Source of the DNA: a virus
Lineage: Duplodnaviria > Heunggongvirae > Uroviricota > Caudoviricetes
Strand: one strand, 5' to 3'
Length of the DNA stretch: 10,062 bases
Virus record (IMG/VR): IMGVR_UViG_2579779107_000005
Shown: in pieces, positions 1-10,062 of the stretch
Layout of the letters: the number at the start of each line of letters is the position of its first letter
Numbering within the stretch: the first letter of the stretch is position 1
The notes under the pieces: generated by a model
The model's database searches: none
The model's input: only the letters and a program-made list of their open reading frames with translations
Told to the model about the DNA's origin: nothing
Program-made: the position numbers and the translations under genes

Positions 1-3000
1 TGAGCTGGGCGACCGAGGCGTAGCCACCGGCGACGAGCGCCGAGAACAGCACCGACATCGCGCCGGCCGCCTGAGGACCGCTGCTCGAGCTGGCAGCGAT
101 GTCGTTGAGCACTGCGGACATGGCCGATCCGCTGAGTGCCGCGGTGGCGCCGTTGGTCTGGAACGCGCCGCCGAGGGTGTTCAGGTCGCCCGCGAGGCGC
201 TCGGCGTTGAGGCCGCCGGCGAGGGCCTGGTTGAGGCCCTGGGTGAGCGAGTCGGCGAAGGTGATGGTGCTGTCGCCGGCGCCGTCTGCGGCGTCCCCGA
301 GGGCGGCCACGCCGTCGGCGGCGCCCGCGGCCGAGGTGCCGAGCGCGGAGTTCGCGGAGGAGGCTGCTGCGGCCTGCTGAGCGCTCTTGCTGACGGCGGT
401 GGAGCTGGCGTCAATCGCCGCGTTCACCTTGTCGTAGATCGGTGCAATCTCGTTGAGTACGCGCGCCTGCTCCGCGGTGGTCTGCGTGAAGCCCTGGGCG
501 GCGAGCTGGGACTGCAGCATCTTGCTGGAGTCGATGCCCTTGGCCTTGTTGCCCGAGATGAGGTCCATGGCGTGCTCGAGCTGGTTCGTCGAGATTCCGA
601 TTCCAGTGGCGACGTTCTCGGCGAGCTGCTTGCCGTACTCGCGGCCACCGTTCACGGGGTCGCCGAGGATGGCCTTGGCGAGGTCGTTCTGGTTGAAGCC
701 GAAGCCCTGGAGCTTCTGGAGGCCCGCGCTGTCCTTGAAAAGGCTCTGGAATGACTTGCTGTTGGCGAGTGCGGTCGCGAGGGCCTGCTTGGCGTTCTCG
801 CCGTATGCCACGGTCTGCTTCTTGATCGAGTCGGTGGCCGTGGTCGTGTCGTTGCTGAGCTTGACCTGGGCGCCCGTGGCCGTCTCGAGCGAGGAGACCC
901 AGGAGTCAGCCGAGCGGCTGTTGTCTTGGATGTTCGTCGAGATGGTGTTGATCGCGTCACCGGTCTGCTTGTAGGTCGCGGTGTCCTTCTGCATGGCCGC
1001 GGAGAGGTCCGCACCCTGGTCGCCGAAGAAGTTCTTGGCTCGCGTGGAGGCGGACGCCTGCGCGTCGTTGTACTCCATGAGGGCGGCGACGATCGATCCG
1101 ATAGCGACGGCGGCGATCCCAAGGCCAGTGGAGGCGAGTGCGATCTTCCACAGGCGGGCACCGCGGGCGGCCGTGGCCTCGGCGGCGGCGACCGCCTCGA
1201 CGCCGCCAGCGTAGGTCGCTGCTGCCGCGCGGGCCTCGATGAGCATGGTCTTGGTGGCGAGCAGCGAACCGGTGAAGCGTGCGCCGGCCGCGGTCGCGAG
1301 AGCAATGGCCCCGGTGACCGCCACGACGCCGAGCGTGATGGCAATGAACGCCTGGCCGGTATCGGTGCTGGCGACGTCGGTGAGGGTCTGGACGAAGTCG
1401 GTTAGCCCGCTAACGATGTCTCGGATGGGGCCGCTGGCGGCGTCCCCCATCGAGGCGAAGAGCGCGGCGGTCGAGTTGCCGAGGACCTGGAGCTTGGCGG
1501 CGAGGGTCTCGCTGGTGATGCCGTACTGGGCGCTCAGCTCGGACGCCTGGCTCATGCCGGTCGAGGCGTTGGCGAAGGAGTCGCCGAGCAGCTCGGTGTT
1601 CTGGGAGAGCTTGAGCAGCGAGGGGATGTCGCGGACGCTCTGCAGGCCAAGTGCCTGCAGGGTGGCGATGGCGTTGTCGCCCTGGGCGTGGACCCCCTCG
1701 AAGAGGTCGACGAGGGTGGACGCGGCGTCGGCCTTGAAGGCGGCGCGGAACTGGTCGCCGGTCTCGCCCGCCAGGGCTCCGAACTTGGCGAGCGCGTCGC
1801 TGTCGCCGTTGATGGCCTGCTGGATGAGCGTGAACAGGCGCGTCACCGAGGCTCGGGCGGCCTCCGGGGCGATGCCGATGGAGGCGAGCGCCCCAGAGAG
1901 GCCGACCACCTGGTCGGAGGTGAGCCCGACGGTGGAGGCGATGCCGGCGATGTTCTGGGAGATGGCGATGATCTGCGACTCGGTGGCGACCGAGTTGACG
2001 CCGACCTTGAGGATCGACGAAGCGAGTCCCTCGTAGTTGCCCTGGACGTCGGGGAGCAGCTCGTTGAGACGGCCGAGCGCCGTGCCGGACGCCTCGATGC
2101 CGACGTTGGTGGTGGCCGAGAACTCGGCGGTGACGCGGGTGAAGTCCGTGAGGTCGGTCGCTGCGATGTTGAGCTGACCACCGAGGGCACCGATGTCGGA
2201 GAGGTCCTGGAAAGAGACGGGGATCGACGTGGAGAGGTCTACGAAGCTCTGCTTGAGGTTGGCTGCCGCCTGACCGGTGACGTCGGCGGTGCGCTCGACC
2301 TGCGCGAAGCTGCTCTCGAACGACATGGATGCACCCGCGGCAGCGCCGAAGGCGGCGACGAATCCTGCGCCCATGGTCGCTGCTGCGAGCGAGACGTCGA
2401 AGAGCGCGTACCGGACGCGGGGGAGGTGGCTCTCGGTGATCCCGAGGAAGGTCTTGTCGTTGCTGGCGCTGGCTGCGCTGGCAGCAGCCTGCTTCTGGGC
2501 GGACGCGAGCTGTTGTGAGGCGGCGCGGTCCTTCTCCTTGGCGTCCGCGACCTTGCTGAGCGCTGCAGCCTGGGCCGAAAGGTCGGCGGGCGCCGTGGAC
2601 ACGACCGCCTGCAGGTTGCGCTCGGCGGCGGCGAGAGCTGTGGCAGCGCTGCGCGCACGGTCCTGGGCGGCGGCGACCGCGCCGACCTTCGCGACCTGCG
2701 CGTCGTAGGCGTTCGCGTCATCGACCTTGGTGATGCGCCCCTTGGCGCCGGTGATGGCGGACGCGATGCGAGCCTGGTTCGCTGCAGCGCGAGCGGCCTC
2801 CGCATCCGCCTGCGCCTGCGCCTGGGCGAGCGCCTTGACTGCCGCCTTCTGCTCGTCGTACGCGGCGGCGAGGTTCTGGCGGGCGCGCGCCTGAGCCGGG
2901 AGGGAGGCGTCCTGGTTGACGAGCCTGGTGTTCGCGCCCTTCGCGACCGTGAGCGCCTTGGTGGCGGCGGCGAGGCGCATCTCGGCGGCGGCGACGCCTC

Positions 3001-3565
3001 CGATCTTGGCGACCTGGGCCTCGTAGTCGGCGCTCTTGAGCGAGGCGTTGATGCGAGCCTGGGCGGCCTCGATCTGTGCGGCGGCGCCCTTGATTTCGGC
3101 GGCGTAGCTCGCCTCTCGCGCGGCGATCGTGCGGAGCTGGTCGTACTGGCCCGAGCCGCTGGCCTGCGCGCCGTTAAGCGGGTCGGCGGTGGCCTTCTCG
3201 CCCTCGGTGCCGGTCAGTTCGTTCTTGCGGAACGCGGCGTAGGCGCGCTGGGCCTCGTTGATGGCAGTGACGCGCTCCTGCCAAGCGGTCGACCCCCGCG
3301 AAACGACGTTGCTCTCGTCGCCGAGCGCGGTGGCGGCGTCCGAGATGGCAGAGCGAAGCTGCTCGTGCGCGCCCTGGACGTCGAGAAGCGCGCGGGCGTG
3401 CTTCTCGGTGGAGCCCTGGAGGACGTGGAACTTCTCCTCGAGCGCGGCGAGTCCGGTGACCGTGCCGTCGATCTTCTTCTCAGCGCCGTCGAGTGCCTTG
3501 AGGGCGTCGGACAGGCCGCTGATGATGAAGTCGAGCCGCGCTTCAAGGCTGAAATCCTCGGCCAC
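1..3565 (-). CDS. Tape measure protein, TP901 family (3' end runs off the left edge; about 1188 codons visible)
   Basis: Not in the ORF track. Manual translation from GTG at 3565 (SD-like GAGAGAGGA 9 nt upstream) gives MAEDFSLEARLDFIISGLSDALKALDG..., and I found no in-frame stop to position 1. Ala-rich and helical, with a PhageMin_Tail/TP901-like core from about residue 414 (MSFESSFAQVERTADVTGQAAANLKQSFVDLSTSIPVSFQDLSDIGALGGQLNI...). Lies directly after the chaperone genes. Confidence 0.95.
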   Translation of the reverse strand, partial: MAEDFSLEARLDFIISGLSDALKALDGAEKKIDGTVTGLAALEEKFHVLQGSTEKHARALLDVQGAHEQLRSAISDAATALGDESNVVSRGSTAWQERVTAINEAQRAYAAFRKNELTGTEGEKATADPLNGAQASGSGQYDQLRTIAAREASYAAEIKGAAAQIEAAQARINASLKSADYEAQVAKIGGVAAAEMRLAAATKALTVAKGANTRLVNQDASLPAQARARQNLAAAYDEQKAAVKALAQAQAQADAEAARAAANQARIASAITGAKGRITKVDDANAYDAQVAKVGAVAAAQDRARSAATALAAAERNLQAVVSTAPADLSAQAAALSKVADAKEKDRAASQQLASAQKQAAASAASASNDKTFLGITESHLPRVRYALFDVSLAAATMGAGFVAAFGAAAGASMSFESSFAQVERTADVTGQAAANLKQSFVDLSTSIPVSFQDLSDIGALGGQLNIAATDLTDFTRVTAEFSATTNVGIEASGTALGRLNELLPDVQGNYEGLASSILKVGVNSVATESQIIAISQNIAGIASTVGLTSDQVVGLSGALASIGIAPEAARASVTRLFTLIQQAINGDSDALAKFGALAGETGDQFRAAFKADAASTLVDLFEGVHAQGDNAIATLQALGLQSVRDIPSLLKLSQNTELLGDSFANASTGMSQASELSAQYGITSETLAAKLQVLGNSTAALFASMGDAASGPIRDIVSGLTDFVQTLTDVASTDTGQAFIAITLGVVAVTGAIALATAAGARFTGSLLATKTMLIEARAAAATYAGGVEAVAAAEATAARGARLWKIALASTGLGIAAVAIGSIVAALMEYNDAQASASTRAKNFFGDQGADLSAAMQKDTATYKQTGDAINTISTNIQDNSRSADSWVSSLETATGAQVKLSNDTTTATDSIKKQTVAYGENAKQALATALANSKSFQSLFKDSAGLQKLQGFGFNQNDLAKAILGDPVNGGREYGKQLAENVATGIGISTNQLEHAMDLISGNKAKGIDSSKMLQSQLAAQGFTQTTAEQARVLNEIAPIYDKVNAAIDASSTAVSKSAQQAAAASSANSALGTSAAGAADGVAALGDAADGAGDSTITFADSLTQGLNQALAGGLNAERLAGDLNTLGGAFQTNGATAALSGSAMSAVLNDIAASSSSGPQAAGAMSVLFSALVAGGYASVAQL
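1402..1413. promoter_or_regulatory. Putative operator TTAGCCCGCTAA inside the tape measure gene
   Basis: Exact match to TTWGCNNGCWAA; extends to GTTAGC-CC-GCTAAC. Encoded by GTT AGC GGG CTA, where GTT and CTA are atypical codons for this GC3-rich gene. Confidence 0.5.
2495..3025 (-). repeat. Degenerate internal duplication (about 70 aa, 106-aa period) in the tape measure N-terminal region
   Basis: YEAQVAKIGGVAAAEMR...SLPAQARARQNLAAA (3025-2816) vs YDAQVAKVGAVAAAQDR...DLSAQAAALSKVADA (2707-2495); the Tyr codons are 318 nt apart. Confidence 0.7.
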
Positions 3566-3616
3566 CGGCCACCGTCCTCTCTCGTTTGGGGTTTACAGGA
3601 AGCGTACAGGTTACAT

Positions 3617-4078
3617 TCAGGAAACCCTCAGAGACTCGAGAACCTCGCGTCGGCGCACGTCCTCGGAGACGTAGTAGCTGTCCCGATAGCTGGCAAAGTC
3701 GCTGCCATCAGTGGTGTAGGGCACGGGCCGCAGTGCAACGCCATGGGGCTTCTTCCAGTTCTCGCCGGCGCGCTTCTGCTCGCGCTCTTCGAAGATGTCG
3801 ACAGCCTTCTGCGCCTCGCACTCGTCCTCTTCGACGCGGAAGCGAATGCGGGGGTCGTCGGAGTGGCAGATGTAGACGGGCAGGCCGCAGCGGCAGCGCT
3901 CAGCCTCGAGGGACTGCACCGCCTCCACCAGGAGGTAGTCCCACTCGGACCATGCGGCCTTGTGCGGGTGCTTCTTGCGGAAGAGGAACGCCGTGGGCGC
4001 CACGTTCACCGACGCAGCAGCCTTGATGACTGAGACGTACCTGGCCCCGGCGCCGGAGGCCAGGTAGCCGGCTAGAAA
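3617..4078 (-). CDS. Tail assembly chaperone, C-terminal (gpT-like) part reached by -1 frameshift; predicted fusion about 408 aa
   Basis: The -1 frame is open from the slippery site (FLAGYLASGAGARYVSVIKAAASVNVAPTAFLF...) into ORF 3617..4009, which has a CRCGLPVYICH...C motif. Lies between the chaperone and tape measure genes, as in lambda G-T-H. Confidence 0.85.
   Translation of the reverse strand, partial: FLAGYLASGAGARYVSVIKAAASVNVAPTAFLFRKKHPHKAAWSEWDYLLVEAVQSLEAERCRCGLPVYICHSDDPRIRFRVEEDECEAQKAVDIFEEREQKRAGENWKKPHGVALRPVPYTTDGSDFASYRDSYYVSEDVRRREVLESLRVS
3686..3697. promoter_or_regulatory. Putative operator (one mismatch) ATAGCTGGCAAA, about 120 nt upstream of the tape measure start
   Basis: Minus-strand reading TTTGCCAGCTAT is 11/12 identical to the site at 8824-8835; encoded with TTT and TAT codons. 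Confidence 0.4.
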
Positions 4079-4081
4079 TCC
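4038..4081 (-). other. Programmed -1 ribosomal frameshift signal: heptamer G GAU UUC (4081-4075), 8-nt spacer, stem-loop (4066-4038)
   Basis: The heptamer immediately precedes the UAG of the chaperone gene. The downstream stem UACCUGGCC/GGCCAGGUA is a perfect 9 bp, extendable by G-U and C-G pairs. The -1 frame joins the next ORF. Confidence 0.85.
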
Positions 4082-4842
4082 GCCTGTGCGATCGCCGACT
4101 CGGAGACGGCGTTGCGGAACTGCAGGTCGTTCACCGTGGTGAACAGCTTGCTCATCTGGCTGATGGGGAGGAAGTCACGCAGCGCTTCCAGCTCCTCGAC
4201 CGAGAGCTTGACGCCCTCCTCGCCGGTGGAGTTGTCGCGGTAGCGCACCACCTGGTCATAGGCCAGCTCGAGCAGGTTGCGCTCCTGGAACGCCTCCTCC
4301 TGATCCGCGGGGATGCCCTTCTCGGTGATGCCGAGCGCCTTGCGCGCGCGCCGGGATGCGCCGCGAGCGATGGCGAAGGGGAGCGCTCGCAACTCGATCG
4401 AGAGGCTGTTGGACCGAACCTCGTCGCGAATCGCGGCGGCGGCTGCATCCAGCTCCGCGAGCTTCGCCTCCTGCGGCTTGATGAACTCGAGCAGCTCCTT
4501 GCGCTGACTGATCTGCTCCTCAACTTCCGCGATGTCGACCTCGAGGGCGGCGGCGTCGTCGCCCTCCGCCTTCTTGAGGTCGCGCTTGAGCTTGGCGCGG
4601 AGCTTTGTCAGCTCGTCGATTCCGGCAGCGTTGAGCTTGGCGCTCTCGATGGCGTTACGAAGGCGTGCGAGCGCCTGCTCAGCTACGGCCAGGCGCTCGC
4701 TGTTCACCTCGTCGTACCCGAGGTCGAGCTTCGCCGTTCTCATGTCGCGGTTCTTGATCCGGTCGATGAGCGAGAAGCCGGACTTGGCCTCCTCGACGAT
4801 TTCGGTCACGTCGGCGATGTCGGTTTCCAGGGCGTCGGTCAC
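4072..4842 (-). CDS. Tail assembly chaperone (gpG-like), 256 aa, with a long coiled-coil-like segment
   Basis: GTG start with SD GGAGGAG; positioned between tail tube and tape measure genes; ends ...AQADF* at the slippery site. Confidence 0.85.
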   Translation of the reverse strand: MTDALETDIADVTEIVEEAKSGFSLIDRIKNRDMRTAKLDLGYDEVNSERLAVAEQALARLRNAIESAKLNAAGIDELTKLRAKLKRDLKKAEGDDAAALEVDIAEVEEQISQRKELLEFIKPQEAKLAELDAAAAAIRDEVRSNSLSIELRALPFAIARGASRRARKALGITEKGIPADQEEAFQERNLLELAYDQVVRYRDNSTGEEGVKLSVEELEALRDFLPISQMSKLFTTVNDLQFRNAVSESAIAQADF

Positions 4843-4887
4843 GCTGCTCCTCCAGGCTGATATTCGGCTGCCTCCCAGCCAAGACTC

Positions 4888-4916
4888 AGGTTAGCGCGAT
4901 TCGTTTAGCGAGCAAA
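4888..4916 (-). promoter_or_regulatory. Candidate promoter for the chaperone/tape measure genes (-10 TAACCT at 4893-4888; weak -35 TTTGCT at 17 nt) overlapped by an operator-like site at 4905-4916
   Basis: TANNNT hexamer just downstream of the terminator. TTAGCGAGCAAA (plus strand) is an exact match to TTWGCNNGCWAA and covers the putative -35. Confidence 0.5.
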
Positions 4917-4947
4917 AGAAAAGCCCCGCCGCGAGTGCGACGGGGCT
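4913..4947 (-). terminator. Rho-independent terminator after the tail tube genes
   Basis: Minus strand AGCCCCGTCGC-ACTC-GCGGCGGGGCT (11-bp stem with one G-U pair, 4-nt loop) followed by TTTCTTTT, starting 13 nt after the stop at 4960. Confidence 0.9.
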
Positions 4948-4959
4948 CTTCTTGGTCTG

Positions 4960-5721
4960 TTAGGCCGTGACGGTGATCGCCGTCTCGTCCGACGGGAGGG
5001 CGCCGGGGAAGGAGGCGGTGATCTTCGCCTCGCCGATCTTGAGGCGCTCGACGATGCCGTGCTCGGTGACGGTGGCGATCGACGGGTCGCTCGTGCTCCA
5101 CTTCGCGCCGATGGTGACGATCTTGCCCTGGTAGACCGCCTTGAGCCGCGTGACCGACCCGACCTTCCCGCTCGCGTCGCCCGCGGCGACCGTGACGGCG
5201 ACCTTGACCGGCGCGGCGGGCGCGATGATGCCACGCACGCCCATGTCGGACTGCGGGAGCAGCGCGTCCGCCCACGAGTACGAGGTGTCGCCGCGGACGT
5301 CCTTCGGAGCGTCGGACAGCACGTGCCAGGCGTTGTACTCGTCGCCGGCAACGAGCGGCTTGGAGGCCGCCTCCACCGGGCGCGCGAGGAGGATGACGTC
5401 CGAGCCATACGGCTTGAGCATCGTCTCGGCGATGAAGTAGCTCGAGGCGGTGTCGTCGGGCTGGGCCTTGAAGCCGGAGAAGTTGCCTCCGAAGTCGCCG
5501 TTGCCGGCGCTCTTGGCGCCCGCGGCGTCCGCGAAGGAGCGGTCGTCGCTGGACTGGCTCGACTTGGTGTTGAAGTCGGTGCCGTCGAACTTCACCGCGT
5601 CGGTGATGTTCTTGAGCGTCGCCGCCTCGGTCTCGGTGATGGCCGTGACGTCGGCGACCGCGGAGGCCGGACCCACGAACCAGGCGTAGTGCTTGTTGGT
5701 GAGGATGCGCTTGTTGGTCAC
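4960..5721 (-). CDS. Major tail (tube) protein paralog B with C-terminal Ig-like (Big_2-type) domain, 253 aa
   Basis: GTG start with SD AAGGA. The N-terminal ~170 aa align by eye with the 5734..6318 protein (NITDAVK/NITEAVK; VAGDEYNAWHV/VAGQKYSAFYV). C-terminal WSTSDPSIATVTEHGIV...GEAKITA is an Ig-fold signature. Precedes the terminator and chaperones. Confidence 0.85.
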   Translation of the reverse strand: MTNKRILTNKHYAWFVGPASAVADVTAITETEAATLKNITDAVKFDGTDFNTKSSQSSDDRSFADAAGAKSAGNGDFGGNFSGFKAQPDDTASSYFIAETMLKPYGSDVILLARPVEAASKPLVAGDEYNAWHVLSDAPKDVRGDTSYSWADALLPQSDMGVRGIIAPAAPVKVAVTVAAGDASGKVGSVTRLKAVYQGKIVTIGAKWSTSDPSIATVTEHGIVERLKIGEAKITASFPGALPSDETAITVTA

Positions 5722-5733
5722 TGTTGCTCGTCC

Positions 5734-6318
5734 TTACACGAGAGTCGCGTCGACCACGGACACGGACTTCGTGACCCAGGTGACGTCGATGGTCTGGTTG
5801 GCGCCGTCGCCGTAGGCGTCGACGGGGTGGTCGTTCTCCACGTAGAACGCGCTGTACTTCTGGCCGGCGACGCCGAGTGCGTCGTGAGCGAGACCGATGC
5901 GGCGGACGGCGATGAACTTGGCGCCGCGCGCGCGAACCTGGTCGTTCGCCACGTTGTAGGTCGAGTCCACCGCGGCGCTGTTCGCATCCCGGAAGATCGT
6001 CGCCTTCGCGTCGTAGTTCTCGGAGGTCGGGACCACCGAGTTCCCCGACGCATTCACGGGCTTGTCGCTGTCGGTCTCGGAGTCGCTCGCCTCGAGCTTC
6101 GAGTCGTCCTTGACGGCCTCGGTGATGTTGGCGCCGGCGCCCGAGTAGCCGGCGGCGGCGCGCGTCGTGAGGGCCGCGTACTCGTTGTAGAGGTCGGCGC
6201 TGATGGCGCTGATCGGGTCCTTGCCGGCGACCCCGATTCCGTACGGCTCGCCGAGAACCTCGGTCGCGGGGATGAGTACCCACGCCTCGGTGTCGGCGGA
6301 GAGAACCTTGTCGGCCAT
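5734..6318 (-). CDS. Major tail (tube) protein paralog A, 194 aa
   Basis: Canonical position after the tail terminator; beta-rich tube-protein-like sequence; start coupled by TAATG overlap; homologous to paralog B. Confidence 0.8.
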   Translation of the reverse strand: MADKVLSADTEAWVLIPATEVLGEPYGIGVAGKDPISAISADLYNEYAALTTRAAAGYSGAGANITEAVKDDSKLEASDSETDSDKPVNASGNSVVPTSENYDAKATIFRDANSAAVDSTYNVANDQVRARGAKFIAVRRIGLAHDALGVAGQKYSAFYVENDHPVDAYGDGANQTIDVTWVTKSVSVVDATLV

Positions 6319-6527
6319 TAGGCGGCCACCTTCTTCCTGTTCGAGGCGGCGTGCTTGCCGCCGTTCGGTTCCGTCTCGGTGGCGTTGGGCTCGGGGGTCT
6401 CCTCCGCGATCGGCTCGGCGGCCGGTGCGTCGATCGGCTCCAGCTCCGGGAACAGCGCTGCCACGGCGTCGCTGAACTCGCCCACCTTGCCGGTGATGCT
6501 GTGCTTGTAGGTCTTGGTCTGACTCAC
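6318..6527 (-). CDS. Hypothetical 69-aa protein upstream of the tail tube genes (acidic/Pro-rich C-terminal half)
   Basis: ORF fills the gap; its TAA overlaps the next ATG; GC3-biased codons; probable leaderless GTG start. Confidence 0.75.
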   Translation of the reverse strand: MSQTKTYKHSITGKVGEFSDAVAALFPELEPIDAPAAEPIAEETPEPNATETEPNGGKHAASNRKKVAA

Positions 6528-6540
6528 ACAGCTCAGTGTA
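6527..6540 (-). promoter_or_regulatory. Candidate leaderless promoter: -10 TACACT (6540-6535), 7 nt before the GTG at 6527
   Basis: TANNNT-N7-start geometry and no SD before the start codon. Confidence 0.5.
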
Positions 6541-6575
6541 AGGAAACTCCCAGCTTACTTCCAGAAACGGGGATT

Positions 6576-7016
6576 CTACAGGTTGATGGTGGTCTTCATT
6601 GCGGCGATCTTCGAGAAGAGCGCGGGCCGGGTCTTCGTCTGCTGGGAAGAGCCGTTGTAGGCGTACGGGATGCTGACCGGAGTGTCGTTGCCGGGCACGG
6701 GGGTCCAGTCAACCATCAGCTCGACGACCGCCTTCCAGAGCGCATTGAGGGAGTTGCGGTCACCGGCGTAGCAGCCGACGACGAAGGTCAGGGTGTACGC
6801 GATGTCGGCCTCGCCGTCTGACATCGCTCGACCGGCGGAGGGGTTGGCGAACGGTACGCCCATGGACAGGACGATGTAGGGCATGGCCTTGCCCTGGCCG
6901 TCCGGGTACACCGGCACCATCGTGTCGTCGGGTTCCATGTCCATGATCCGGCCGCCGGCGAGGGTGCCGAGTCGCTCTCGGATCGCCGTCTCTTCTGCGC
7001 CTCCGTCGAAGCTCAT
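6576..7016 (-). CDS. Tail terminator protein, 146 aa (start revised to ATG 7016)
   Basis: Position between gp10-like and tube genes; PYIVL...TFVVGCYAGDRNSLNALWKAVVELM pattern typical of terminator-type proteins. ATGA overlap with the upstream stop supports 7016 over 7034. Confidence 0.7.
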   Translation of the reverse strand: MSFDGGAEETAIRERLGTLAGGRIMDMEPDDTMVPVYPDGQGKAMPYIVLSMGVPFANPSAGRAMSDGEADIAYTLTFVVGCYAGDRNSLNALWKAVVELMVDWTPVPGNDTPVSIPYAYNGSSQQTKTRPALFSKIAAMKTTINL

Positions 7017-7465
7017 CCCTTGCTTCCCACCCATGCCTTTAGCTGGCTCTTGAACTCGCTCTTGGCTACCTCGGAGGCGTCAAGGAGTGCGTGGACGCCG
7101 GCCACTGGAACGACCTGCGAGCCGTTCTCCTGGACCTCGTAGTAGATGGGCGTGCCATCGTCGCCGATCCAGCCGAAGCGACCCTGCATTCGGTTCTCAT
7201 CGAGCTGGTACGAGTCGTGCTGGAAGTCGTCGCGGAAGTCACCAGTGACGATGCGACCGGGGTGGCCGCCGTTGTCGCGCGCGCGGCGGTCGCCGGTCGG
7301 CGTGGTGCTCATCTCGATCTTCTGGTGGGCGACGTCCTCGCCCTTCGTGAGGGACTCATCCATGGCGGCGGCGGCCACGGCGTTCGCCTCGTCGCGGAGG
7401 CCAAGGAGCTGCTGGCGGACCCCGGCGATGAATGCGGTGCCGACACCGGCAAGCGCGGTGCTCAC
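7013..7465 (-). CDS. HK97 gp10-like tail completion / neck protein, 150 aa
   Basis: GRIVTGDFRD and YYEVQENGS motifs resemble the gp10-family R.dTG..r and Y..y.E.GT motifs; GTGA overlap with the stopper gene; synteny. Confidence 0.7.
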   Translation of the reverse strand: MSTALAGVGTAFIAGVRQQLLGLRDEANAVAAAAMDESLTKGEDVAHQKIEMSTTPTGDRRARDNGGHPGRIVTGDFRDDFQHDSYQLDENRMQGRFGWIGDDGTPIYYEVQENGSQVVPVAGVHALLDASEVAKSEFKSQLKAWVGSKG

Positions 7466-7917
7466 GGCATGCTCCAGGGATCGAGCAGAGCGCCGTTGGT
7501 GCGACAGCGCACCTTGGTCAGCGCTGCGATCGACCCATTCTCGACGCCGAGGACCTGGAACCCGAAACGCGCGAGGGCGGGGTTGTCGCCACCGGGGAGC
7601 GCGCGGATGACCATGCCCTGCTGCAACACGGGGTCGCCGGGCTCAGGGATGAACTGGATGCGAAAGTCCACGATCCCCTGCAGCAGGCCCGCCTCGGTGA
7701 GGGCGGCAGCCTGGAGGGCCTTGAAGTAGGCGGGCCGGGGGCCGAGCACGAGCGTGGCTGCGCTCAGCCCCCCGGTGTCGGCATGAGGGTCGTAGTCGTC
7801 CGTCGGTGTCCTGGTGTTCGGGTCCAAGACGACGAGCTGGTCCTTGAGCATGCCTGCATCCAACAGCGCATCGCGAATCGCGCCGATGAAGTCGGTGGAG
7901 GCAGGGGCAAGGGCCAT
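7462..7917 (-). CDS. Head-to-tail stopper (head-closure) protein, DUF6093-like, 151 aa
   Basis: DYDPHADTG and C-terminal DNPALARFGFQVLGVENGSIAALTKVRC resemble actinophage stoppers; first gene of the stopper/gp10/terminator/tube series. Confidence 0.65.
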   Translation of the reverse strand: MALAPASTDFIGAIRDALLDAGMLKDQLVVLDPNTRTPTDDYDPHADTGGLSAATLVLGPRPAYFKALQAAALTEAGLLQGIVDFRIQFIPEPGDPVLQQGMVIRALPGGDNPALARFGFQVLGVENGSIAALTKVRCRTNGALLDPWSMP

Positions 7918-7945
7918 GCCTTCCAGGGTAGCGTTTGCTGGCTAA
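7917..7945 (-). promoter_or_regulatory. Candidate leaderless promoter (-10 TACCCT at 7930-7925, 7 nt before ATG 7917) with an operator-like site at 7934-7945
   Basis: Minus strand TTAGCCAGCAAA-CGC-TACCCT-GGAAGGC-ATG; exact match to TTWGCNNGCWAA 3 nt upstream of the -10. Confidence 0.55.
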
Positions 7946-8097
7946 ATTCCAGCAGGAATGTGCTGGTGGCAATACCAGCCGTTCGGCCACTCGTACGGCG
8001 TCGTCCACTTCTGGCGCGGGCATCGCTCGCCAGTCGCAGTTGTTCCGCAGCACTGGTGCTTCCAGATCGTCGACTCGGAGGGCCAGTCGTAAGTCAC
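7942..8097 (-). CDS. 51-aa putative zinc-finger protein (not in ORF track): MTYDWPSESTIWKHQCCGTTATGERCPRQKWTTPYEWPNGWYCHQHIPAGI
   Basis: GTGA overlap with the upstream stop, SD GAGGAG 5 nt upstream, fills the gap exactly; C-x3-T-x2-G-x2-C ... C-x2-H pattern. Confidence 0.75.
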   Translation of the reverse strand: MTYDWPSESTIWKHQCCGTTATGERCPRQKWTTPYEWPNGWYCHQHIPAGI

Positions 8098-8417
8098 GAG
8101 TGCTCCTCAAGGTAGCGGCGGCCGGCGTCGGTGATCTTGAATAGCGCCTGGTTCACCGAGTTGGAGCGGTGGTGAACAAGGCCGAGGCGTGACAGCTCCC
8201 AGGCGACACGCGCCCCCTTCATGGGCATGGTGCCGCCCATGGCTCCGGGATCGTTCGTGCCATGCTTGCGCGTGCGCTTCTCCCAGGCGGGGGAGTCGGG
8301 CCAGAGCTTCGCAGCGATCGCGCGCCCGGGGGTGCCGAGAGACCCCTCGTAATCGTCATCGTTGAGGTCTCGGATCGCGGCCAGAGCCCGGAGCTTGGCC
8401 GGAGTGAGGTCGGCCAT
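8094..8417 (-). CDS. 107-aa hypothetical protein, winged-helix-like (start revised to ATG 8417)
   Basis: TGATG overlap with the upstream stop. N-terminal LTPAKLRALAAI and C-terminal ELSRLGLV...FKITDAGRRYL resemble wHTH recognition-helix/wing motifs. Confidence 0.65.
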   Translation of the reverse strand: MADLTPAKLRALAAIRDLNDDDYEGSLGTPGRAIAAKLWPDSPAWEKRTRKHGTNDPGAMGGTMPMKGARVAWELSRLGLVHHRSNSVNQALFKITDAGRRYLEEHS

Positions 8418-8581
8418 CAGTAGCAGAACCACCCTTCGCAACTGCTGCAGCGAATACCGCCGCCATGTCCCGCGACGATCTTGTGCTTGCAGCCTACTGC
8501 CGCGCCCCACAGGATCGTTCGACCCTCTTCGCTTACCCAGGTTTCGCGTAGCGTTCCGGTCGGGCTGTTGGTCTTGCTCAT
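8417..8581 (-). CDS. 54-aa Cys-rich hypothetical protein (start revised to ATG 8581)
   Basis: ATGA overlap with the xis stop; MSKTNSPTG...GCKHKIVAGHGGGIRCSSCEGWFCY has C-x-H and CxxC, a possible zinc ribbon. Confidence 0.7.
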   Translation of the reverse strand: MSKTNSPTGTLRETWVSEEGRTILWGAAVGCKHKIVAGHGGGIRCSSCEGWFCY

Positions 8582-8772
8582 GCCGCCGCCTTCGTGTCCA
8601 TCTCCTGCTTCGCCAACCAGGCGTCGACGGTGGACTGGCGCCAGCGGAGTCGGTTGCCGATCTTGATGGGCTCGGGCAGGTCGTCGCCGTCGCTCCTCTT
8701 GCGGTAGATGGTCTGCTTTGCGAGCCCGAGTTGCTCGCCCAGGTCGTCGACGGTCAAGAGCCGGTCGCCCAT
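8578..8772 (-). CDS. xis: Excisionase / AlpA-family HTH protein (probable recombination directionality factor), 64 aa
   Basis: LLTVDDL..LGL..TIYR..G..LPEPIKIG.RLRWR..VDAWL signature; SD GGAGG; adjacent to the integrase. The RDF role is inferred. Confidence 0.85.
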   Translation of the reverse strand: MGDRLLTVDDLGEQLGLAKQTIYRKRSDGDDLPEPIKIGNRLRWRQSTVDAWLAKQEMDTKAAA

Positions 8773-8799
8773 GTTTCCTCCAGGTTCCAGTGGTTGCCA

Positions 8800-8844
8800 T
8801 TTAGCGAGCTAAAGCTATCTCATTTTGCCAGCTAATGCTATTCT
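8800..8844. promoter_or_regulatory. Divergent xis/int control region with two tandem operator-like sites (8801-8812, 8824-8835) and -10 candidates TATTCT (+, 8839-8844) and TAGCTT (-, 8817-8812)
   Basis: AT-rich 102-bp gap. Imperfect direct repeats TTTAGCGAGCTAAAGCTAT / TTTTGCCAGCTAATGCTAT, 23 bp apart, each containing TTWGCNNGCWAA. Confidence 0.7.
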
Positions 8845-8874
8845 TCTTCCTATTCATACCGAACAGGAGGTCTG

Positions 8875-10062
8875 GTGGCCCGGTCACGTACACCCGTCGG
8901 CGCGCACGGCGACATCAATCTCAAGCAGATCGCCCCGGGCAAATGGCGGGCGCGCACGCTCTACCGCTTCGAGGATGGCACCCGTCGTCAGGTCGAGCGC
9001 GCCGGCAGCACGAAGGGCAAGGCCCAGAACGCGCTCCTCGAGGCACTCACCACGATCGGCGTGCCGGACTCCCGCACGGGAAAGATGAAGGCGACCATGA
9101 CCGTTGCCGACCTGGCCGAGGTCTACCTTGAGACGAAGCGCAAGGAGAAGCTCGCGCCCAACAGCATCCGCACCTACACCCAGTGGGCACGCTCGAACAT
9201 CGTGCCGCAGCTCGGCGCTCTGCGCGCCACCGAGGTGCGCCCGATGGTCGTGCAAGAGTTCTGTGACCGGGTGACCGACGAGAACGGCGCCGGAACGGCC
9301 TACAACTGCCGGAAGGTGCTGCGAGGCATGTTCGCCCTTGCGCTTCTGAATGACGTCGTGAAGGTGAATCCGGTTGTCGGCGTGAAGGTGTTCGGAGTGG
9401 GTGACGTCGGCAAGGCGGCGAAGGCCCTTCCGCTCGATGGCGTCGACAGCTTCCTCGACGTCGTGCGCAACGACCCCGCGATGCGCTCCGCCGGCATCCC
9501 GGATATCTGGGAGTTCATGGCCTTCACGGGCTGTCGCATCGGCGAGGCGCTCGCGCTTCGGTGGTCCCACGTCGACTTCGAGGCGGGCGCCATCACGCTC
9601 GGTCCTTCCATCGCAGAGTACGAGGGGCCGGTGCGCATCTGGGAGCCCGCGAAGACGGACAAGTCCTTGCGCACCATCATCGTGCCAGCGCGGACGATGG
9701 CCCTGTTGCGGGGCATCAAGGAGCGGGTGCCGCATACCGACGAGGGCCTCGTCTTCCCGCACCCGACGGGCAAGATTTACCGGCCGACACGCCTCGAGCA
9801 AATCTGGGAGCGCAACCGGGAACGGCTCGGCTACCCCGAGTTCACCTCGCACGGCTTCCGAAAGACCGTCGCGACTATGCTGGATGCGGCGGGGCTCACC
9901 GCTCGAGAGATTGCGGAATACCTCGGACACAAGCGCCCCTCCTTCACCCAGGACGTCTACATGTCGCGCGAGGTGGGAAGCAACAAGGTGGCGAAGTTCT
10001 TCGACTCAAAGTTCGGGGAAAGTTCGGGATCGGAGGGGGAGCGGGATGCGAAATCCGCGTAA
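8875..10062 (+). CDS. int: Tyrosine integrase, 395 aa
   Basis: SD AGGAGG plus GTG. Catalytic motifs TGCRIGE (R), PAKT (K), SHGFRKT (HxxR), LGHK (H), TQDVY (Y). N-terminal arm-binding-like segment (GKWRAR...DGTRRQV). TAA at 10060-10062. Confidence 0.97.
   Translation: MARSRTPVGAHGDINLKQIAPGKWRARTLYRFEDGTRRQVERAGSTKGKAQNALLEALTTIGVPDSRTGKMKATMTVADLAEVYLETKRKEKLAPNSIRTYTQWARSNIVPQLGALRATEVRPMVVQEFCDRVTDENGAGTAYNCRKVLRGMFALALLNDVVKVNPVVGVKVFGVGDVGKAAKALPLDGVDSFLDVVRNDPAMRSAGIPDIWEFMAFTGCRIGEALALRWSHVDFEAGAITLGPSIAEYEGPVRIWEPAKTDKSLRTIIVPARTMALLRGIKERVPHTDEGLVFPHPTGKIYRPTRLEQIWERNRERLGYPEFTSHGFRKTVATMLDAAGLTAREIAEYLGHKRPSFTQDVYMSREVGSNKVAKFFDSKFGESSGSEGERDAKSA
10008..10029 (+). repeat. Tandem direct repeat AAAGTTCGGG x2 (11-bp period); candidate integrase arm-type sites
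   Basis: AAAGTTCGGGG AAAGTTCGGGA within the low-complexity 3' end of int. Function is inferred from the usual position of arm sites flanking attP. Confidence 0.55.

Follow-up and report, generated by a model that had tools for sequence, protein, structure and literature searches.

A dispersed 12-bp palindrome as the candidate operator of a prophage-wide regulator in Leifsonia

Genes and palindrome copies in the window

The stretch of viral DNA considered here (IMG/VR record IMGVR_UViG_2579779107_000005; 10,062 nucleotides, the whole of which is referred to as the window) spans the integration genes and part of the tail module of a Leifsonia prophage, and it contains repeated copies of a 12-bp palindrome, TTWGCNNGCWAA, whose distribution and probable role are described below. 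The window corresponds to G000:C9:325508-335569, where G000 is a 4.58-Mb Leifsonia genome of 70% GC. Its right end is occupied by a tyrosine integrase gene (int; 8875..10062, + strand; Pfam Phage_integrase, E = 2.5e-18), which is divergent from a gene for a 64-residue Xis-like protein (xis; 8578..8772, - strand) recognised by its match to the HTH_17 family. These are followed on the - strand by the gene for a 107-residue winged-helix-like protein (8094..8417), which has a weak EarA-like match below the Pfam cut-off and a low-confidence structural model, and by an open reading frame (ORF) of 51 codons (7942-8097). Connector-type genes run downwards from 7917, the first gene of the tail module (7462..7917, - strand) encoding a 151-residue protein assigned by synteny with relatives. 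Two tail tube paralogues (5734-6318 and 4960-5721, - strand) were placed from the gene layout, which is completed by two chaperone ORFs and the start of a 1870-residue tape measure gene. A terminator-like hairpin of -32 kcal/mol with a T-run (4917..4952, - strand) follows the tail tube gene; a consensus terminator scan of 3500-9000 missed this hairpin, which has a 9-nt loop.

Exact copies of TTWGCNNGCWAA begin at 1402, 4905, 7934, 8801 and 8824, and a one-mismatch copy begins at 3686, all of them where the original prediction had located them. Dinucleotide shuffles of the window gave expectations of 0.02 exact and 0.27 one-mismatch copies, and the observed counts were reached in none of 200 shuffles. 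The concern that the motif was defined post hoc is met by the genome-wide and other-genus data given below, which are independent of that definition. Two exact copies, to which no strand is assigned here or at the other sites, lie in the int-xis intergenic region: site B, TTAGCGAGCTAA (8801..8812), and site A, TTTGCCAGCTAA (8824..8835). Their layout is shared with the prophage of G180, a Pseudolysinimonas metagenome-assembled genome from another genus, in which the pair is 24 bp apart. The third exact copy (7934..7945) lies 5' of the first tail-module gene, its TAG serving as the stop codon of the 51-codon ORF, and its position is kept in the relatives L044, G180, L058, L059 and L060. The fourth (4905..4916), between the Ig-bearing tail tube gene and a chaperone gene, abuts the terminator-like hairpin and is kept in G180, L058 and L060, and the fifth (1402..1413) lies within the tape measure gene, where it uses the rare codons GTT and CTA and has a counterpart in the G180 tape measure gene. 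The one-mismatch copy (3686..3697), within a chaperone ORF of 130 codons, is not kept in G180 and is probably incidental.

Four of the six copies in the window are thus at gene boundaries, as had been proposed. A 17-base extension of the motif, TTWGCSAGCWAA-NGC-TA, was likewise recovered three times (8801+, 8824+ and 7945-), and its TA opens a TANNNT hexamer in two of the three cases (TATTCT, 8839-8844, + strand; TACCCT, 7930-7925, - strand). In the relatives the NGC-TA extension falls outside the motif, the TA being part of a -10-like hexamer whose offset is 2-4 nt. The TCCCAGGAAAC late-promoter element is not enriched in the window (4 matches against 2.1 expected). A weak copy with deviating outer bases (4064..4075) lies on the stop codon of the 256-codon chaperone gene and is kept in G180, L058 and L060. 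This weaker palindrome, of CTAGCCGGCTAC type, stands on the stop of the first chaperone ORF beside a GC-rich hairpin in four related sequences (window 4064-4075, L058:5425, L060:5692 and G180:C2:60421), and it may be part of the chaperone frameshift signal rather than a member of the network discussed below.

Distribution in the prophage and conservation in relatives

All eight exact copies in the G000 genome fall within C9:283089-334331, inside the prophage, so the motif is not equally common in host DNA. With the refined motif WTWGCBVGCWAW, whose fuller form of about 16 bp reads not-T, w, WTWGC-BV-GCWAW, w, not-A, 21 copies are found in the genome and 20 of them lie inside the prophage, which at ~74.6 kb makes up 1.6% of the genome; at least 15 of the 32 one-mismatch copies of the genome fall in the same stretch. 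The prophage-wide tally is about 25 copies, and of 26 sites analysed for position 22 are non-coding or on a stop codon, where 16% of the DNA is non-coding and 84% coding (p = 2e-14), the overlap with stop codons arising because the motif contains TAG and TAA. Eight sites lie 14-29 nt 5' of start codons, immediately upstream of the ribosome-binding site, and several abut terminator-like hairpins (after the capsid gene, after the tail tube genes and at the point where the arms converge). Paired sites are 23-24, 60-63 or 73 bp apart, and the junctions concerned span the early, replication, lysis, tail and head regions. The existence of the sites, their restriction to the prophage, their intergenic placing, their symmetry and their conservation are direct observations.

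Conservation was followed in G000, in G180 and in the metagenomic sequences L044, L058, L059 and L060. G180 was detected in a family-wide search through a tail tube protein 68% identical to that of G000, and it was the only relative in the species-genome collection; in a family-wide scan for the pattern most high-GC genomes had 0-2 copies and G180 was the sole outlier. Its syntenic prophage lies on two contigs and encodes proteins 37-77% identical to those of G000. All 23 copies of WTWGCNNGCWAW in the G180 genome are inside this prophage, with a control pattern giving 4, and the site is kept at 13 orthologous positions in the two prophages, among them the tail-tube/chaperone junction, the positions upstream of the connector gene and downstream of the capsid gene, the convergence point and several early junctions. 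The G180 pair separated by 24 bp lies between int and the HTH_17 gene, although this integrase is 29% identical to that of G000 and the xis genes are unrelated. The site upstream of the connector gene is present in L044, G180, L058, L059 and L060 with changes at degenerate positions only, so that conservation, which the original prediction had proposed to examine in related elements, extends from G180 to all four metagenomic relatives. The site in the tape measure gene occupies the same alignment column and codon phase in G000 and G180, and it uses xTT and CTA codons, which are rare at a third-position GC content near 0.9.

Searches of a phage database, of IMG/VR by protein, of 54 genomes of the same genus and of JGI metagenome contigs found no close relatives, and Clavibacter phage CMP1, whose tail tube protein is 35% identical, has no dispersed copies. 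A scan of IMG/VR for double sites showed that unrelated phages carry the same palindrome. L022 (13.2 kb, 40% GC), an unrelated phi29-like podovirus, has TTAGCCGGCTAA or TTAGCTGGCTAA at almost all of its gene junctions, 21 copies in total, L017 (57% GC) has 12 copies of the TTAGCAAGCTAA type, and clusters of 4-7 copies are present in L016, L035, L036 and L037, so the half-site recurs across unrelated viruses. No candidate binder common to these IMG/VR phages and the prophage was found, the sole shared protein being Toprim/topoisomerase-like, in L016.

The prophage is flanked by a 17-bp direct repeat at C9:260962-260978 and 335594-335610, and GC content dips at its boundaries. On the left the repeat overlaps the stop codon of a host ABC-ATPase gene, and on the right it lies 25 bp past the int stop codon, just beyond the end of the window. 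A leftward arm read from attL carries the capsid, portal and terminase genes, a DndB-like gene beside an inserted insertion sequence (IS), nucleotide-metabolism genes and an SPFH gene; a rightward early/replication arm carries ArdA-like, SNF2, NAMPT/Prs, AAA_24 and PrimPol genes; and a second leftward arm starts at xis and takes in the tail and lysis genes, with int at attR. From this order integration splits the virion operon between head and tail. A metagenomic contig in the phage form (L059:6411-10453) has the unsplit order capsid, int, xis, connector, and the G180 prophage is also split between head and tail, by a different integrase that targets a tRNA. In the two tRNA-targeting relatives a TTAGCGGGCAAA copy lies downstream of int, 2-4 nt from the tRNA-derived att core (L047 = G180:C2:54837-54848; L058:34-45), where it might stop transcription from reading in or influence recombination; no counterpart exists in G000.

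Several other features of the prophage were recorded. Between the arms lies a gene-free, divergent control region of 1.3 kb and lower GC (C9:282100-283437) with three copies of the motif, two of which are 63 bp apart and flank a promoter-like element, TTGAAC-N17-CATAGT; G180 has an analogous pair 60 bp apart. The IS transposase gene (rve, HTH_28; C9:270141-271598) lies between the DndB-like gene and a small terminase-side gene and is absent from that place in G180. Upstream of the DndB-like gene a near-match to the actinobacterial LexA box (TCGAAC-N4-GTTC; C9:273340-273360) hints at an SOS input to the left arm. At one syntenic position both prophages have a small gene that runs counter to the surrounding operon, with a bidirectional terminator after it (G000:C9:273471-273710, + strand; G180:C16:27592-27789, - strand). 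Its products of 79 and 65 residues resemble each other weakly (pairwise E = 8e-7) and have no family match, and it could be expressed in the lysogen. A tRNA-like gene of 88-89 nt, called as tRNA-Ala GGC, lies upstream of the PrimPol gene at C9:304903-304991, 76 nt past a motif copy. In the window, the stretch 7946-8577, which separates the int-xis site(s) from the connector site, forms a cassette of variable content with motif copies on both sides.

Site symmetry and predicted promoters

Symmetry was analysed on 48 sites pooled from both prophages and oriented by the direction of transcription. The two half-sites are indistinguishable relative to that direction (p = 0.2-0.8), and the constraint on the flanks is symmetric as well, with T avoided two bases before the 12-mer and A avoided two bases after it. 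The mean RNA hairpin energy over the pooled sites is -0.2 kcal/mol, which corresponds to no stable hairpin. Symmetric half-sites and the lack of a stable RNA hairpin fit a DNA target of a symmetric, dimeric protein and not an RNA element.

In the int-xis region the -10 element predicted for xis (Pxis; TAGCTT, 8812..8817, - strand) lies between sites A and B, and G180 has TACCGT in the same sandwich. Read toward xis, the first base of site B is also the final base of the predicted -10, and the site extends over the predicted start point. Site A, 23 bp from site B measured start to start, precedes the predicted Pxis -10 by 6 nt and, in the other direction, the predicted -10 of the int promoter (Pint; TATTCT, 8839..8844, + strand) by 3 nt; the Pint hexamer is preceded by TGC in the manner of an extended -10. 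The layout at Pxis, consisting of a site, 6 nt, TANNNT and a second site, is found in both G000 and G180 despite their unrelated xis genes, and such a two-site sandwich suggests the layout of a repressor.

Ahead of the tail module a putative -10 (TACCCT, 7925..7930, - strand) is placed 3 nt after the 7934 site and 7 nt before the ATG at 7917. The same succession of site, 2-4 nt, TA[ACG]CCT, 6-7 nt and ATG precedes the connector gene in six relatives, several of which lack a Shine-Dalgarno sequence, and this suggests that the tail-module promoter is leaderless or near-leaderless, with an operator abutting its -10. In both G000 and G180 the 4905 site includes a TTGCnn hexamer, with a TANNNT 16 nt away. 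Operator placement therefore varies, the sites abutting a -10, lying over a -35 or standing where no promoter is predicted, and this variation argues against an activator of fixed geometry.

A proposed operator network and its alternatives

We propose, with a probability of roughly 60%, that TTWGCNNGCWAA is the operator of a single phage-encoded, symmetric and probably dimeric regulator, most likely a repressor, acting as a network over the ~74.6-kb Leifsonia prophage. Protein binding, the promoters and the direction of regulation are inferred from the arrangement of the sites. Within the window such a regulator would cover both divergent int/xis promoters, the tail-module promoter, the restart point beyond the tail-tube terminator and a single position in the tape measure gene. 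At Pxis a pair of dimers, spaced by two helical turns, would flank the -10 and cover it together with the spacer and the start point; a single dimer would abut the -10 at Pint and at the connector promoter; and sites in tight gene junctions lacking a promoter may act as roadblocks. The original prediction, in which a dimeric regulator co-controls int, xis and the tail genes, is borne out to the extent that symmetric sites sit on the predicted int, xis and tail-module promoters, but the link is a local view of a prophage-wide network of about 25 sites and is not special to the integration and tail genes.

Several points weigh against this proposal. The position of the sites, considered by sequence alone, does not separate repression from other roles based on occupancy. 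A sigma-70 consensus scan of 3500-9000 gave no match, and the promoters are predictions. The left arm of about 20 kb (nucleotide metabolism, terminase, portal and capsid genes) holds just 1-2 sites in both prophages, and any silencing would therefore be uneven. The tape measure site is absent at that place in L058. Finally, domain searches found no HTH_3, ParB_N or KorB domain in the prophage and only one HTH_17 protein.

The regulator should be a backbone protein encoded outside the window and common to both prophages, which have roughly 35 proteins in common. Of the three kinds of binder named in the original prediction, only a factor encoded outside survives, and among the proteins examined no specific one is supported. 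Neither the WhiB-like protein, the DndB-like protein nor a helical paralogue pair, all shared backbone candidates, gained support. The paralogue pair (C9:293941-294513 and C9:295154-295465), each member of which has a site upstream, drew weak, HTH-leaning atlas leads (0.79-0.87); its AlphaFold2 model, with a predicted local distance difference test score (pLDDT) of 85, is all-helical and has no fold match in the PDB at E <= 0.001. Contigs with homologues of the pair were too short for co-occurrence, one of them keeping the upstream site. PDB searches with the DndB-like and WhiB-like proteins gave no informative matches. Pfam scans of about 70 prophage proteins revealed no repressor of the gp71 type, and no direct search for that type was made.

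The other two binders of the original prediction, the Xis/AlpA-like protein and the 107-residue winged-helix protein, would regulate their own genes and co-control int, xis and the tail genes. Both genes are directly downstream of the paired sites, and every relative has an HTH_17 gene next after its int-proximal site(s). The winged-helix protein, however, has no tblastn match at E <= 1 in G180, L058, L059 and L060, four of the five relatives that keep the motif, and is found among them only in L044; four loci of about 20 kb each that encode homologues 40-50% identical to it contain no copy of the motif. It has no relative in the PDB by sequence, and its single-sequence model, at pLDDT 62, is too weak for use. 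The Xis-like HTH_17 proteins are of at least three unrelated or distant types (22-36% identity, 5 invariant columns) with different presumed recognition helices, and the motif is unchanged across them. As arm-type or Xis sites the palindromes would also be out of place, the motif staying constant while Int is only 29% identical and Xis unrelated, and about 25 sites over 75 kb are unlike those of a directionality factor. Both proteins are thus disfavoured, and binding by either is very doubtful. A phage activator or sigma-associated factor that switches promoters on, such as the WhiB-like protein encoded at C9:298721-299047, is a somewhat better candidate that we still regard as unlikely. In its favour, several sites adjoin TANNNT hexamers, and the WhiB-like protein, which contains a GVWGG turn, shows 70% conservation in G180, with a site after its gene in both prophages. 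Against it, the spacing between site and -10 is variable (2-4, 6, 7, 11, 17 and 23 nt), and at Pxis one site overlaps both the -10 and the start point. Many sites are 14-16 nt from the following start codon, too close for a promoter to fit in between, and one conserved site is intragenic. WhiB-type factors act as sigma-bound monomers, which leaves the dyad unexplained.

The plasmid RK2 has 12 OB sites, scattered over the replicon and recognised by a global repressor, and DndB is a DNA-binding regulator of ParB/Srx-like fold. A comparable set of ParB/KorB-style loading or silencing sites, acting at a distance or in genome maintenance with the DndB-like protein (C9:271879-273315) as the candidate, is improbable here. 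The half-sites are near-identical to the TTTAGC / GCTAAA halves of RK2 KorB OB (TTTAGC-G-GCTAAA) and KorA OA (TTTAGCTAAA) (PMC11790492), and the DndB-family protein is 71% conserved in G180 and present in L059. The spacing differs, however: OB and OA have 1 or 0 central bases, whereas all 48 pooled sites have two and none has the 13-bp form TTTAGC-S-GCTAAA. RK2 is also a plasmid and not a phage, the prophage has no match to a ParB_N or KorB-domain protein, and five unrelated viral records with the same palindrome have no DndB. In its specific form, with a DndB-like protein possibly of ParB/Srx type loading at TTAGC-NN-GCTAA like KorB at OB and silencing the whole prophage and the integration switch remotely, the analogy is slightly less probable again; if true, DndB-like loading would be a phage counterpart of the RK2 KorB system. 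Function as recombination landmarks for swapping cassettes between related phages, with regulation secondary, is highly improbable, even though the cassette beside the int-xis sites is variable (xis, the winged-helix gene and the 51-codon ORF in G000; xis alone in G180, L058 and L059; xis and a 77-codon ORF in L060), non-homologous early genes are bracketed by sites in the same way, and Cluster O phages have a gene flanked by their own dyad repeat (PMC4351075). Twelve bases are very short for homologous exchange, and the fixed -10 layout, the pairs two helical turns apart and the intragenic site kept through rare codons would go unexplained. Action in RNA, through processing or translation control upstream of ribosome-binding sites, could be suspected from the eight sites 14-29 nt 5' of start codons, just before the Shine-Dalgarno sequence. 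We give it hardly any weight, as conservation is symmetric in either direction of transcription with no stable hairpin, and sites also occur in divergent spacers that look untranscribed, after terminators, beside the att core and in both orientations at int-xis. An artefact of chance or composition, which a motif defined post hoc on six copies invites, is refuted for practical purposes by the lack of any exact copy elsewhere in 4.5 Mb of host DNA and by the independent recovery of the motif in another genus.

The operator network that we favour has precedents among actinobacterial phages. The repressor of the Streptomyces phage phiC31, the product of the known gene c, binds many palindromic CIR operators of 17 bp scattered through the genome of this temperate actinophage. 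The present sites are likewise scattered and palindromic, with a sequence and length different from those of the CIRs. In the Cluster A mycobacteriophages, operators and stoperators are recognised by L5 gp71 and the TipsytheTRex repressor (PMC9283540, PMC6550527). As there, more than 20 copies of a short site are spread across a temperate actinobacterial phage and confined to it, at promoters (here predicted) and in the short gaps between genes of both early and late operons, and are kept in related phages; unlike the Cluster A sites, which are asymmetric 13-mers bound by a monomer and oriented with transcription, the sites described here are dyads with no orientation bias. The closest in form is the 17-bp dyad repeat of Cluster O mycobacteriophages, TGTTCGG-NNN-CCGAACA (PMC4351075), while the stoperators of Cluster A are the same kind of arrangement. 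The Cluster O repeat, for which no binder is known, is also a short inverted repeat with a free centre, present in tens of copies (more than 30 per Cluster O genome) mostly at gene junctions and, like the present sites, kept within its group of phages. The likeness is one of kind only, as sequence and spacing differ (7+3+7 there, 5+2+5 here), and Cluster O phages are not described as integrating, whereas here the sites are also on the int/xis switch.

Dispersed phage operators are already known as a general principle. What the palindrome adds would be a well-defined, conserved regulon in a little-known group of Microbacteriaceae prophages, with the integration switch, the tail-module promoter and some twenty other junctions all tied to one factor through a single 12-bp dyad. 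As the phage has no recognisable repressor of the cI/XRE type, the identity of the binder would reveal by what means lysogeny is maintained in this lineage. The two-site sandwich at the xis -10, which recurs with unrelated xis and int genes, would be a case of regulatory sites outliving the genes that they control.

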